Positions 3,441 through 51,516 of a stretch of DNA of 64,000 nt are shown here, in pieces. Numbering within the stretch: the stretch's first letter is position 1; each line of letters begins with the position of its first letter. The DNA lies in contig NC_041064.1 in the NCBI RefSeq assembly GCF_900634775.1, positions 1,444,717 through 1,508,716 on the forward strand, given 5' to 3'. The notes under the pieces were generated by a model. That model was not told the origin of the DNA. It ran no database searches and saw only the letters and a list, made by a program, of their open reading frames with translations. A program made the position numbers and the translations under genes. Source of the DNA: Gouania willdenowi. Taxonomy: Eukaryota.

Positions 3441-3613
3441 ATGAGCACACCTGATGAAGCTGAGCTCTGCTATCCACACCTGGGAAACTCCTCGTGCAGG
3501 AGGATCATGCGCTCTCACTCAGTGTCTGTGCTCATTTCCATCATCCTGTCCTCCATCTCTGTGCTCACTGTGACCCTCAACCTGCTGGTCATCATCTCTA
3601 TCTCACACTTCAA
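3441..3613 (+). CDS. TAAR-like GPCR (class III-like), coding exon 1 (N-terminus and TM1)
   Basis: ORF 'MSTPDEAELCYPHLGNSSCRRIMRSHSVSVLISIILSSISVLTVTLNLLVIISISHF', paralogous to the N-terminus of the minus-strand gene at 57804. GT donor at 3614, phase 2. Confidence 0.7.
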
Positions 3614-11492: not shown

Positions 11493-11784
11493 GGTACCAA
11501 TCACACTGAGAGAAAAACCTCCCAATTATATGATGCCAAACTCCAATGACCCTTAATTTAGGTTAATTATTTGCAAGTCTCTAATTAATTAGATAACTTT
11601 TTTATTTGATTCCCACCAATAATAATATGTAATGTATTATAATTTCTTCTGAAGGGCAGGTGATGATGATTATGTAATGTGATGTCTTCCCTCTTCCATT
11701 CCTTTCTCACCAGTTTTTTGTCACTAATCCAGACATTGATCGTCTTCGCTTTCCCTCCTGAATCCTTTGCTTCCTCAGGTCAAC

Positions 11785-11910
11785 ATGTTGGTTTTTGAGA
11801 ACTGCTCCGTGTTTCTGGAGCTAAGGAACTTGTCCCTCAGCGAGAAGAAGAAGCTGAGATCAGCGGTGACGGAGAACGGAGGAAGCATCACCTTCATCAT
11901 CACAGCACAG
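11785..11910 (+). CDS. parp4: PARP4 (vault PARP) exon 1, BRCT domain start
   Basis: 'MLVFENCSVFLELRNLSLSEKKKLRSAVTENGGSITFIITAQ' aligns with my recollection of the human PARP4 N-terminus, from memory and not database-checked. Donor 'cag|gtacag'. Confidence 0.75.
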
Positions 11911-11929
11911 GTACAGATAGATACACAAT

Positions 11930-12181
11930 AGATCTGGTCCTGTCAAAGTGGTGGTCTCGTGTCTCCATCAGTGGTCTCTGGTGGTCTCGTGTCTCCATCA
12001 GTGGTCTCTGGTGGTCTAGTGTCTCCTACAGTGGTCTCTGGTGGTCTAGTGTCTCCTACAGTGGTCTCTGGTGGTCTAGTGTCTCCTACAGTGGTCTCTG
12101 GTGGTCTAGTGTCTCCTACAGTGGTCTCTGGTGGTCTAGTGTCCCCTACAGTGGTCTCTGATGGTCTCATGTGTCCTACAG
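11930..12181. repeat. 30-bp minisatellite (~8 units 'gtggtctctggtggtct(a/c)gtgtctcc(t/a)aca')
   Basis: Direct reading. Every unit ends in 'cctacag'. The last unit supplies the exon 2 acceptor. Confidence 0.9.
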
Positions 12182-12401
12182 TGTTCTTTGGTCGTGGTCT
12201 CTGACGTGTCCCAGCTCAGTTCCACGCGGCTACGCAGCGTCCAGAGGCACCAGGTGCCCGTGGTGAGCCCGGAGTACCTGCACCGCTGTTTGGAGAGCGG
12301 ACAGCTGCTCTCTGTGGACGGGTTCAAGTTGGACACGTCCTCGCCTCACTCAGTTGTTCCTGCTCCGCCTCCACCCAGACAGGCTCCGCCCACAGAACAA
12401 G
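12182..12401 (+). CDS. parp4: PARP4 exon 2, rest of BRCT
   Basis: 'CSLVVVSDVSQLSSTRLRSVQRHQVPVVSPEYLHRCLESGQLLSVDGFKLD...' matches the remembered human 'CTHIILDNADVLSQYQLNSIQ' (recalled, not checked). Phase 0 after exon 1. Donor 'caag|gtgaga'. Confidence 0.7.
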
Positions 12402-25445: not shown

Positions 25446-25491
<46 letters not shown>

Positions 25492-25525
25492 TGTTGTGTG
25501 TGCGTGCGCGTGCGTGCGTTCACAG

Positions 25526-26513: not shown

Positions 26514-26600
26514 GTGAAAGAGAAGGAGGCGGCCCGTAGGGAGTACAGGCAGGCGGTGCAGAGTGGCCATGGAGCTTATCTGATGGACCAGGAGGCTGCG
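26514..26600 (+). CDS. parp4: PARP4 exon 16 (VIT)
   Basis: 'VKEKEAARREYRQAVQSGHGAYLMDQEAA'. Donor 'gcg|gtagca'. Confidence 0.65.
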
Positions 26601-26605
26601 GTAGC

Positions 26606-26670
<65 letters not shown>

Positions 26671-26689
26671 AGTGGCTCCTCCTCCACAG
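26601..26689. repeat. Intron 16 made almost entirely of (AC)n (~33 units)
   Basis: 'gtagcaac(ac)n...ctgagtggctcctcctccacag'. 89 nt between the exon 16 donor and the exon 17 acceptor. Confidence 0.8.
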
Positions 26690-31099: not shown

Positions 31100-31925
31100 C
31101 TCGTCCCGAGGGCTGCTGACGTCTTTAGTTCAGACCATCAGGGAATTATTTGTGTACTTTAGTCAATCTACACATAATAGAATACAGTATACAAATGAAA
31201 TAAAACATCAGGACTTATTCATTTTTGCTCTGAACCCTGTCATCTTGTCAAGTTTGGCAACACGGCGTGCTTGGAGCATGTTGGAGTTAGCACTACCGAG
31301 CTGTCCATGCTAGCTGCTACATGTTTAGCATTGAGGTGCTATCTGCTGCATGTTTAGCATTGAGGTGATAGCTGGTACATGTTTAGCATTGAGGTGCTAG
31401 CTGCTACATGTTTAGCATTGAGGTGCTAGCTGCTACATGTTTAGCATTGAGGTGCTAGCTGCTACATGTTTAGCATTGAGGTGCTATCTGCTACAAGTTT
31501 AGCATTGAGGTGTTAGCTGCTACATGTTTAGCATTGAGGTGCTAGCTGCGCCATATTTAGCATTGAGGTGCTAGCTGCTACATATTTAGCATTGAGGTGC
31601 TAGCTGCTACATATTTAGCATTGAGGTGCTTGCGGAGGCTGCAAAGCCTCGGTCGTTGACAAACTTGTACTTGCTTGATTTGCACACAACGAGGCCTGTG
31701 TTTTCCATCCAATGTTTTTATAAGCCAAAATTAACGCAAACAAAGCTGAGAAGCTTGGTAGTCTTCTGTCTGTGCATCAGTATAATGGGTATACCGGGAA
31801 CTCTTGAAATGAAAAAGGTTCTGCGCTGTTAAGAGTGTTAAAAAAAATTGATTAACAGCATTATATTTTTAGCGCGTTATTTTTTCCTGTAATTAATTAA
31901 TCACAATTAACGTGTTAAAGTGACA
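31100..31925 (-). mobile_element. Repeat element carrying a 33-bp minisatellite (copy A; inverted relative to copy B at 37770-38700)
   Basis: 31300-31640 holds ~10 units of 'gctagctgctacatgtttagcattgaggt'. 31640-31925 is the reverse complement of 37770-38080 ('...ctgtaattaattaat(c/t)a(c/t)aattaacgtgttaaag...'). Confidence 0.6.
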
Positions 31926-37769: not shown

Positions 37770-38700
37770 CTAGGGCTGGGCCTTTAACACGTTAATTATA
37801 ATTAATTAATTACAGAAAATTAACGTACTAAACAAAAAAACGCATTTTTTTCCACTCCAAACAGAGCAGAACTTTTCTTATTGCACGAGTTCCCGGTATA
37901 CCCATAATACTGATGCACAGACCACAACACAAGAAACAGGAGAACCAGAGGAGAAGTCGTTGCTGTGTTTTGTGGGCGTTAATTTTATTTTAAATAAAAA
38001 CACTGGATGGAAAACTAAAGCCCATCTGTGTGAAAATTGTTAGAGAAAGAGTTCGTGAATCAGAGCTCTGTTAGCCTCAGCTAGCACCTCAATGCTAAAC
38101 ATGTTGCAGCTTGCACCTCAATGCTAAACATGTAGCAGCTCGCACCTCAAAGCTAAATATTTAGCCGCTAGCAGCTAGCACCTTAATGTTAAACATGAAG
38201 CAGCCAGCACCTCAATGCTAAAGATGTAGCAACTAGCACCTCAATGCTAAACATGTAGCAACTAGCACCTCAATGCGAAATATATAGCAGCTAGCACCTC
38301 AAAGCTAAATATTTAGCAGCTAGTAGCTCAATGCTAACCACGTTGCAGCTAGCACCTCAATGTTAAACATTTAGCAGCTAGCACCTCAATGCTAACATGT
38401 AGCAGCTAACACCTCAAGGCTAACATGTTGCAGCTAACACCTCAGTGCTAACATGTAGCAGCTAGCACCTCAATGCTAACATGTTGCAGCTAACACCTCA
38501 ATGCTAACATGTTGCAGCTAACACCTCAGTGCTAACATGTAGCAGCTAGTACCTCAATGCTAACATGTAGCAGCTAGCAGGGACAATGGTCCTAGTGGAG
38601 CAGACAGTGTCTCCAATCTACACTGACACTCAGACAGGGTTCAGAACCAATAATAAATCCATGAGTAACAAATGAACAAAGTCAGTGATAAATGATTGTA
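37770..38700 (+). mobile_element. Repeat element carrying the 33-bp minisatellite (copy B, inverted relative to 31100-31925)
   Basis: Starts 'tagggctgggcctttaacacgttaatt'. 38080-38590 holds ~15 units of 'agctagcacctcaatgctaaacatgtagc'. Confidence 0.6.
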
Positions 38701-43566: not shown

Positions 43567-44844
43567 AGTCAATTCTCTCCTTTTCTCCATGAACCCAAGA
43601 TGAGGAGTCACAGTCTGTCAATACGTAAACCTTCTGAAGATTTGAGATTGTCAGATCAATGTCGGGAAGATGAGAGTGAGTCTTTGGGCAGCTCTATAAG
43701 GGATCCTGGTGAAGACTACATTGCTCCTCCTCTTCTAATGGCTGAAAGCTTGGCAGTCTTTGAAGCACCAGAGGAGGACGTGGACATGGATTATGATGAT
43801 ACCACTTTACTTTTTCCTACAGAGGATCATAGCAACTCTCACCTTGAAGTATCTAATGCAATCTCCACTACTGAATCTTCCATTCGCCGTACGAGGAGGA
43901 AGCTAAAAGATCTAGGAGTTTTACATTCTGCTGCTCCACCTGCATCTCCACCTCGTCTTCTCCCACAGTCATCGAGCTGTAACATTCTACAGAAATGTTC
44001 GTTTGATAGTTCAGTGACTTCATCTATAGATCAAGATTTTGCTGATCCACCTTCACCCACCTGGGTCTCCATTGGATCAGGCAAAGCTTTTGGAGGCATT
44101 CTGCCTCCACCTTGTCCTCCTCTTGGAGGTGCTCCTCCACCACCTCCACCCACTGGGTTCTCCTTTGGATCTGGCAGAGGTTTTGGAAGCGCTCTGGCTC
44201 CACCTTGTCCTCCTTTTGGAAGTGCTCTGGCTCCACCTTGTTTTCCTTTTGGAGGTGCTCCTCTACCACCTCCACCCACCGGGTTCTCCTTTGGATCTGG
44301 TGAAGGTTTTGGAAGCGCTCTGCCTCTATCTACACCTGGTCTTCTTTTTGGAGCCACTCCTCCACCACCTCCACCTACCGGGTTCTCCTTTGGATCTGGT
44401 GAAGGTTTTGGAAGCGCTCTGCCTCTATCTACACCTGGTCTTCTTTTTGGAGCCACTCCTCCACCACTTCCACCTACCGGGTTCTCCTTTGGATCTGGTG
44501 AAGGTTTTGGAAGCGCTCTGCCTCTATCTACACCTGGTCTTCTTTTTGGAGCCACTCCTCCACCACTTCCACCTACCAGTAAGAGTTTGCCTCAGCGTTT
44601 AAGATCTGTCTCTGAATTCTTCCGTCAAAGCAATGCATACCAACCGATGTCGGTAAATAGTCCATTAACAAAGACAAGGTTGAGCTGCAAACAAGTTGAT
44701 CAAAAAGAAACCGTTGTGGAGCTCCAGGGTTCAGAATCACCTAAAGCAATACAGTTCGACGGTGTTGAGAAGACAGCGTTCATCAGAGCCAGAAGAAATT
44801 GTCTAAAGACGTCCTTTAGAGGTTTGAGGGCCAAACAGGAGTGC
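43567..44844 (+). CDS. parp4: PARP4 large exon 30, Pro/Gly/Phe-rich repeat region (the 3' boundary could instead be 44861)
   Basis: Acceptor 'tttctgtttctttag'. A 426-codon open frame in phase with exon 29. Contains ~3 near-identical 108-nt repeats encoding 'TGFSFGSGEGFGSALPLSTPGLLFGATPPPLPP'. Candidate donors 'tgc|gtgagg' at 44845 and 'at|gtaagc' at 44862. Confidence 0.55.
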
Positions 44845-51080: not shown

Positions 51081-51094
51081 AGGGACCCCTACGT

Positions 51095-51420
51095 TTACAG
51101 TCTGTAGTTTAACAGTCTGTGGTTTAACAGTCTGTGGTTTAACAGTCTGTAGTTTAACAGTCTGTAGTTTAACAGTCTGTGGTTTAACAGTCTGTGGTTC
51201 AACAGTCTGTGGTTCAACAGTCTGTAGTTTAACAGTCTGTGGTTTAACAGTCTGTAGTTTAACAGTCTGTGGTTCAACAGTCTGTAGTTTAACAGTCTGT
51301 GGTTCAACAGTCTGTAGTTTAACAGTCTGTGGTTTAACAGTCTGTAGTTTAACAGTCTGTGGTTCAACAGTCTGTAGTTTAACAGTCTGTGGTTTAACAG
51401 TCTGTAGTTTAACAGTCTGT
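51095..51420. repeat. 15-bp minisatellite 'aacagtctgt(a/g)gttt' x ~22
   Basis: Direct reading. About 100 bp upstream of the last parp4 exon. Confidence 0.9.
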
Positions 51421-51516
51421 ATGGTCAGTAGACGTAGTAAAGAGTCAAAGGTTTAAAGGTTGATTAACTGCGTGTGGTTGTTTTATTCTGAAGTGTAAAA
51501 GGCTTTTATTTTGTAG

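Follow-up and report, generated by a model that had tools for sequence, protein, structure and literature searches.

The window, i.e., the whole 64-kb stretch of Gouania willdenowi DNA under analysis, harbors the gene parp4, which lies, with the exons, intron 1, and the array described below, on the + strand. A human PARP4 sequence used as tblastn query gave 21 colinear HSPs that cover human residues 3-1720 and spread over 11785-51691. In several fish, the relatives that databases return for the VIT/VWA part bear the name PARP4, and they carry PF00644, PF08487/PF13757, and VWA domains. In two loci of other fish (L001 and L002), the neighboring gene calls encode BRCT, then PARP and VIT, then VWA. 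The colinear matches and the names of the relatives identify the gene as parp4, as the preliminary description of this DNA had proposed. The first coding exon (11785-11910) runs from the ATG at 11785 through 42 codons to a phase-0 end, with the donor gt at 11911-11912. Its translation, MLVFENCSVFLELRNL...ITAQ (in full, MLVFENCSVFLELRNLSLSEKKKLRSAVTENGGSITFIITAQ), can be aligned with residues 3-44 of human PARP4 as well as with exon 1 at seven loci of five fish species. Intron 1 (11911-12181) is 271 nt long, and its boundaries were set by the homology of both flanking exons. The second coding exon (12182-12401) begins with CSLVVVSDVSQLSSTRLRS..., reads CSLVVVSDVSQLSSTRLRSVQRHQ... from 12182 on, and has its 3' end placed by the donor consensus AAG|GTGAGA at 12401|12402.

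An acceptor-like site directly precedes the exon with the ATG (cttcctcag|gtcaacATG, with the upstream part at 11771-11784), and two other fish have equivalent sites, ctcctcacag|gcATG in L001 (around 575-585) and ctgcttgcag|cATG in L002 (around 3543-3552). Hence, parp4 probably has an upstream non-coding exon, and what had been called exon 2 is to be understood as the second coding exon. We keep the name exon 2 in this sense.

When exon 1 is joined to 12182, the product reads '...ITAQ|CSLVVVSD...' across the junction. Over residues 2-90, this spliced product of exons 1 and 2 matches both BRCT and BRCT_2 of Pfam (about 5e-10). The N-terminal BRCT domain is split, after about residue 42, by a phase-0 intron. 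The boundary is at the same place in other fish and in human (residues 3-44), and the earlier placement of the junction inside the BRCT domain holds. The position of this phase-0 intron, Q|CSL ('...KQ|CSL...'), is the same in eight loci of six other fish, including Dissostichus mawsoni and Goodea atripinnis, and about a dozen further ORFs read through the end of the intron as '...HFPQ|CSL(I/V)VT...'. Because only 12181 restores the conserved BRCT sequence, 12181|12182 is, by homology, the conserved authentic acceptor. We retrieved the N-terminal relatives with a profile of three fish N-termini, since the spliced N-terminus of 115 aa, used alone as the query of a protein search, returned no relatives. 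None of the relatives found exceeds about 67% identity in exons 1-2. Exact-match metagenome scans for the repeat unit described below and for unique exon-2 sequence gave no matches, and we found no transcripts of Gouania willdenowi in the searchable collections.

Most of intron 1 consists of a tandem array. TRF reports a single array at 11949-12192, with a period of 30, 8.1 copies, 94% matches, no indels, and a score of 397. The 31-mer given as the repeat in the preliminary description has six matches with three mismatches or fewer, all within the array, for 0 expected from 100 shuffles, and this search of the whole 64-kb window found no repeat unit outside the array. The announced 30-bp minisatellite before exon 2 is thereby confirmed. 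It accounts for 86% of intron 1 (233 of 271 nt), and the only non-repetitive sequence left is the 38 nt at 11911-11948. It also overruns the acceptor, in register, by around 11-14 nt into exon 2 (the TRF end at 12192 corresponds to 11 nt). A CAG occurs every 30 nt, with its G at 11971, 12001, 12031, 12061, 12091, 12121, 12151, and 12181, and the last of these is the acceptor that had been taken as the used one, an assignment now supported by the homology of the spliced product and by the same intron position in other fish. Eight tandem units had been counted; the tandem arrangement stands, but upstream of exon 2 there are seven full units and one partial unit of 23 nt rather than eight full ones. 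Likewise, the ending 'cctacag', previously ascribed to every unit, is found in six of the eight, but the first two end in 'ccatcag'.

The units are not all alike. At the 5' edge (11949-12001) lie the partial unit (11949-11971) and one edge unit (11972-12001, TGGTCTCTGGTGGTCTCGTGTCTCCATCAG), which share the variant '...tctcgtgtctccatcag', differ from the consensus at three positions, and have neither an internal AG nor an in-frame stop. They are followed by four identical core units (12002-12121, TGGTCTCTGGTGGTCTAGTGTCTCCTACAG) and by a core unit with one mismatch (12122-12151). Each of the core units 3-7 (12002-12151) contains a 'tctag', which provides both an extra AG and a TAG in the frame of exon 2 (12017-19, 12047-49, 12077-79, 12107-09, and 12137-39). 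The terminal unit (12152-12181, tggtctctgatggtctcatgtgtcctacag, or TGGTCTCTGATGGTCTCATGTGTCCTACAG in register after the AG) contains the authentic acceptor AG at 12180-12181, shows four differences from the consensus, and has 0 internal AG and 0 stops. The array has thus a homogenized core, i.e., four identical units and one with a single mismatch, and diverged boundary units. The four identical units suggest, at the level of the single haplotype analyzed, that turnover has been recent. TRF also finds a weak period-10 substructure (69% matches). The unit contains CTGGTGG, seven of the eight bases of chi, which may amount to a resemblance to PRDM9/chi motifs.

We found no array at the intron-1/exon-2 junction in the DNA of six other fish, where intron 1 measures 68-799 nt. 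In five of these six, the intron ends in a conserved '(c)ctacatttcccacag', '(t)ctgcctacatttcccacag', or the variant 'cctatttcccacag' (compared at 860-881 of L001, 4456-4477 of L002, and the equivalent positions of L003-L007). The last 17 nt or so of the intron (cctacatttcccacag; cctatttcccacag in one species) are thus common to five of six fish from different orders, a conservation that is unusually strong for the end of an intron. In many database ORFs this stretch reads through as 'LHFPQ' or close variants. The conserved end ctacatttcccacag has been lost in the window of Gouania willdenowi. One of the other fish has an unrelated 21-bp array (AAGATACTAAGTCATTATTTC, 16 copies) upstream of exon 2 (L003, 3-330), more than 200 nt away from the junction.

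To assess where the unit comes from, we compared it with the sequences around the junction. Downstream of each AG in the array, 15 nt agree in register with the start of the gene's own exon 2 at 11 of 15 positions, and with the orthologous starts of exon 2 at 11-13 of 15. Only 1.4e-4 of all the 15-mers in the window reach 11/15. A blastn-short search with a dimer of the unit, run against orthologous sequences that comprise intron 1 and 60 nt of the exon, had its top match at the junction itself, where ACAG|TGGTCTCTGGTGGT aligned to ACAG|TGCTCTCTGGTGGT of Goodea (17/18, E=4e-4). The 'ACAG' preceding the exon copy matches the ancestral '...cccacag', and the pseudo-start of exon 2 in the unit encodes WSLVV, versus CSLVV in the exon. 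To judge from these alignments, each unit appears to copy the splice junction, with a pseudo-acceptor (...acag) that precedes a pseudo-start of exon 2 (about 14 nt). The signal is fainter on the other side of the unit: local alignments of its 3' half with the ancestral intron end gave p-values of 0.06-0.13 against shuffles, and the edge variant shows about equal similarity to exon 2 at 12204-12219 (p=0.03, uncorrected). Hence, two histories are possible: either a segment straddling the junction was duplicated, or only exon sequence was, with a later displacement of the acceptor. A simple model of junction duplication would not predict the observed 5' end of the array (11949), which lies within the exon-derived portion of the unit.

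Tandem duplications spanning an intron/exon boundary are known in amphioxus as 'mirage' minisatellites (PMC3087553, PMC3902484). We propose that the array of parp4 would be a lineage-specific minisatellite of the mirage type, built from tandem copies of the intron-1/exon-2 junction. Most likely, tandem duplication would have affected a segment containing an AG and the beginning of exon 2, the exon copy TGGTCTCTGGTGGT deriving from the ancestral TGCTCTCTGGTGGT (encoding CSLVV). Unequal exchange or slippage would then have homogenized the middle of the array and left older units at its edges. We infer that the events took place in this order. The array may also have interacted with the exon itself: a 10-mer of exon 2 (GTGGTCTCTG, at 12194-12203) is identical to the start of the unit, and this identity suggests exchange or conversion between the array and exon 2. 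Codons 6-7 of exon 2 are GTC TCT (Val-Ser) here, versus ACC AGT/AGC (Thr-Ser) in several other fish. This change involves a switch of serine codon family and creates the 10-mer.

One might have expected an ordinary GT-rich intronic minisatellite that arose by slippage of the 10-mer GTGGTCTCTG and happens to abut the acceptor, without any homology to the junction. The weak period-10 substructure points in this direction, the window contains many intronic minisatellites and microsatellites, and GT-rich acceptor tracts are frequent in parp4. However, such an origin would leave to coincidence an in-register match to the exon start that has an empirical frequency of 1.4e-4, and it does not account for units that resemble the orthologous exon starts more than their own and whose best orthologous match is the junction. 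Moreover, the unit occurs nowhere else in the window. We thus consider this origin quite unlikely. The array, or its number of copies, might also have been created or mis-sized during assembly, as often happens with short tandem arrays and as occurred for one amphioxus mirage in a genome draft (PMC3087553). Yet the variants are ordered along the array, from the edge variants through the identical core to a terminal unit of its own kind, both neighboring exons are undamaged and keep their frame, and removing the array would leave an intron of only around 38-68 nt. An artefact is therefore very improbable.

The copies of the acceptor raise the question of what would be translated if they were used. 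With exon 1 ending in phase 0, splicing to any AG of the array leads into the frame of exon 2. In this frame, the array reads ...WSLVVSCLHQ WSLVV*CLLQ WSLVV*CLLQ ... WSLMVSCVLQ|CSLVVVSD, with 'WSLVV*CLLQ' for the core unit. Only two acceptors give clean insertions: 12151, which adds 10 aa (WSLMVSCVLQ), and the 'tag' at 12139, which adds 14 aa (CPLQWSLMVSCVLQ). Any AG upstream of 12139 leads to an in-frame TAG within 5-15 codons. Because of the in-frame TAGs in units 3-7, acceptors at least 60 nt upstream of the authentic one would give premature stops and not repeat peptides. To judge from these reading frames, the use of most extra copies would mostly truncate the protein instead of adding repeat-encoded peptides. 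The junction of intron 1, and hence any insertion, falls inside the BRCT domain. In the BRCT fold, this position is expected to correspond to the beta2/beta3 transition. A single-sequence AlphaFold model of the N-terminus, of low confidence (pLDDT 43), hints that the junction lies between two strands (E34-37 | E44-48), and an insertion would probably be located between strands beta2 and beta3.

We then scored the sites with a crude position weight matrix (PWM) for 3' splice sites, built from approximate, generally known frequencies. All the CAG sites of the array, including the real one, score 1.5-2.1, which ranks them near the 92nd percentile among the window's AGs and agrees with the earlier view that the upstream units could formally serve as 3' splice sites. 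A much lower score, -3.1, was obtained for the 'tag' sites. For comparison, the median of 19 other parp4 acceptors is 2.4, and the orthologous acceptors of intron 1 range from 3.2 to 7.0. By this crude PWM, the acceptor at 12181 is weaker than those of the orthologues. The equal scores within the array imply that local context does not single out 12181. A polypyrimidine tract with an AG had been attributed to each unit; the CAG is indeed present in all eight, but the tract is weak (61-67% pyrimidine). As the array fills most of the intron, the predicted branch point, the pyrimidine tract, and the AG of the working site all lie in repeat sequence. Folding of the RNA of intron 1 was no better than that of shuffles (z = +1.06), and masking of the upstream copies by RNA structure is accordingly unsupported.

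A distinguishing element may be found in the terminal unit. A motif scan of the whole intron 1 revealed only two yTnAy motifs, both in this unit: CTGAT at 12158-12162, the candidate branch point, whose A (A12161) is 20 nt from the G of the acceptor, and CTCAT at 12166-12170, whose A (A12169) is 12 nt from it. Among the late units, moreover, the terminal one is alone in having no internal AG. As a consensus, yUnAy is loose, and departures from it are frequent at vertebrate branch points. We propose that the branch point would be either A12161 (CUGAU) of the terminal unit or the A of the 'cctAcag' that ends the penultimate unit, and that the spliceosome would then take the first usable AG downstream. 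This would be the one at 12181, since no other unit than the terminal one has lost the internal 'tag'. Such a choice would follow the first-AG scanning rule, in which AGs less than 12-15 nt from the branch point are bypassed (PMC1431707). The upstream copies, devoid of yUnAy, would act as mostly silent decoys, and any use of them would produce transcripts with premature stops that are likely degraded by NMD, with the exceptions of 12151 (+10 aa) and 12139 (+14 aa). The use of 12181 and the silence of the decoys are thus predicted from homology and from precedent in other genes. In divergence, the terminal unit (four changes) is comparable to the 5' edge units (three), and we therefore do not claim selection on it. 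Its branch-like motifs and its missing TAG may be ancestral or due to chance. Taken as a whole, a junction minisatellite of the mirage type together with this mode of site selection is, in our view, the probable explanation of the locus.

In two other readings, the upstream copies would be used. In the preliminary description, cryptic acceptors at multiples of 30 nt upstream would have put in-frame repeat peptides ('VVSGGLVSPT') into the BRCT domain. It is true that the 30-nt units are a multiple of 3 and end in CAG, that their crude scores equal that of the real site, and that an ORF exists at 11959-12204. But this ORF is in another frame than exon 2 and stops within the exon, at 12202-12204. 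No AG of the array opens the frame of the peptide, and the frame that every one of them does open reads WSLVV* in units 3-7. Even the two peptides that could be inserted, from 12151 and 12139, are different ones (WSLMVSCVLQ and CPLQWSLMVSCVLQ). This outcome is hardly credible. Alternatively, a measurable share of the transcripts might be spliced to upstream units, meet a premature stop, and be removed by NMD, with the number of copies tuning the output of parp4. In line with this, the seven near-identical acceptors score alike, any AG upstream of 12139 runs into an in-frame TAG, and the intron is so short that pairing across it could favor upstream sites (introns of 61-241 nt). Furthermore, changes of splicing caused by intronic VNTRs and by repeat-borne AGs are known, as for the ABCA7 VNTR (PMC5954066) and for CAG repeats (PMC10614865). 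On the other hand, the documented junction minisatellites, i.e., the amphioxus mirages and F7 IVS7, leave normal splicing undisturbed, and the decoy units lack a yUnAy motif. We regard such tuning as unlikely. If it were true, the length of the VNTR would set the dosage of parp4 (vault PARP), and the features of the terminal unit (CUGAU and the lost 'tag') would keep the gene working.

The reading that we favor, a junction minisatellite with mostly silent decoys, has close precedents. Mirages have been described in Adh3 (units of 10-72 bp), in the globins BflGb6 and BflGb9, in troponin C, and in PGBD5, and the one in BflGb6 comprises an intron's 3' end together with the 5' portion of exon 2 (PMC3087553, PMC3902484). 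AG/GT signals are present in many of the mirage units, splicing proceeds normally, length is unstable, and the cores are homogenized while the edge units are excluded (PMC3087553, PMC3902484). The array of parp4 shares the tandem structure, the crossing of the boundary, units that bear splice signals (CAG in eight of eight), and the pattern of edges and core. As in BflGb6, it lies on the side of the intron 3' end and of the start of exon 2. It differs from mirages in its host, a teleost instead of a cephalochordate, in filling 86% of its intron, and in the in-frame stop of units 3-7. Its unit is also much shorter than those of the globin mirages (30 bp versus 150-160 bp). Normal splicing and length instability were demonstrated in amphioxus, whereas the array of parp4 is known from its sequence. 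By structural criteria, it is best classified as a teleost example of this known kind of junction minisatellite.

A related change affects a human intron/exon acceptor junction, which is duplicated in CBS 844ins68. Splicing reportedly uses its downstream copy and yields a normal mRNA. It is a single duplication of 68 bp, unlike the array of parp4. In one paper, it is said to be a variant that 'generates an alternative splicing site' (PMC4296076). On the donor side, human F7 IVS7 contains a 37-bp VNTR whose first element spans the boundary between exon 7 and IVS7, creating a row of silent pseudo-donors in which the site that adjoins the exon is used (PMC1557585). Similarly, the authentic site of parp4 adjoins the exon and is flanked by near-identical intronic pseudo-sites. 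However, F7 concerns donors, its first element, and scanning from 5' to 3', whereas parp4 concerns acceptors and the last element. As 3' sites are selected through the branch point and the first AG downstream (PMC1431707), the rules of the two cases need not mirror each other. Tandem acceptors of the NAGNAG type resemble the array in having several AGs that compete at one intron end, with in-frame differences in length. Yet NAGNAG sites are spaced by 3 nt, which is within the range of direct competition between AGs (<12 nt, PMC1431707), whereas the spacing is 30 nt in parp4 (12/18 when the 'tag' is counted), and each site there would need its own branch point. We thus rejected this class for parp4: the nearest upstream AG is 30 nt from 12181, and the terminal unit is without internal AG.

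The array has consequences for annotation, since eight equally scoring AGs spaced by 30 nt invite wrong gene models, and the model that starts from 12151 is open, adds 10 aa, and would pass a naive check. For the study of splicing, an intron of 271 nt that is nearly all repeat and holds seven near-identical acceptors is a natural substrate for the competition between 3' splice sites. It poses the question of whether the choice of the site depends on scanning from the branch point, on closeness to the exon, or on pairing across the intron. In this respect, the array is the acceptor-side mirror of the use made of the F7 VNTR for donor sites. In terms of evolution, the intron end ctacatttcccacag, common to most of the sampled fish, has been replaced here by an array born from duplication. 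The duplication of junctions can lengthen or remodel introns, an idea already raised for the amphioxus mirages, and such duplications occur in teleosts too. Altogether, this is a neat case that brings no new principle and is unsurprising to a specialist.

Many other minisatellites and microsatellites are found in the introns of the window, and repeat-rich introns are the norm in parp4. We considered the arrays at 17305 and 46419, near the ends of parp4 exons, as further junction arrays and rejected both, because they start inside the intron and do not straddle a boundary. Several short introns of parp4 are largely made of simple repeats. For example, the 92-nt intron at 26598-26689 is mostly (AC)31, and a (TG)30 tract (25448-25506) is just upstream of the exon at around 25540. 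A 29-bp minisatellite (TGCTAGCTGCTACATGTTTAGCATTGAGG) occurs in two introns in opposite orientations, with 11 copies at 31308-31630 and 17 copies at 38078-38579, and these two arrays bracket the exons of the VWA region. A 99-bp tandem repeat with an open frame (33 aa, 'PPPPPPTGFSFGSGEGFGSALPLSTPGLLFGAT') is present in around 3.5 copies with 96% matches at 44047-44577, in the span of parp4 between the matches to human residues around 1203 and 1564. This repeat is probably translated, as a coding VNTR of the proline-rich C-terminal region. Finally, a 15/30-bp minisatellite (GTTTAACAGTCTGTA) of 22 copies with 92-94% matches is located at 51093-51421, about 100 nt upstream of an exon of parp4, and each of its units contains an 'acag'.
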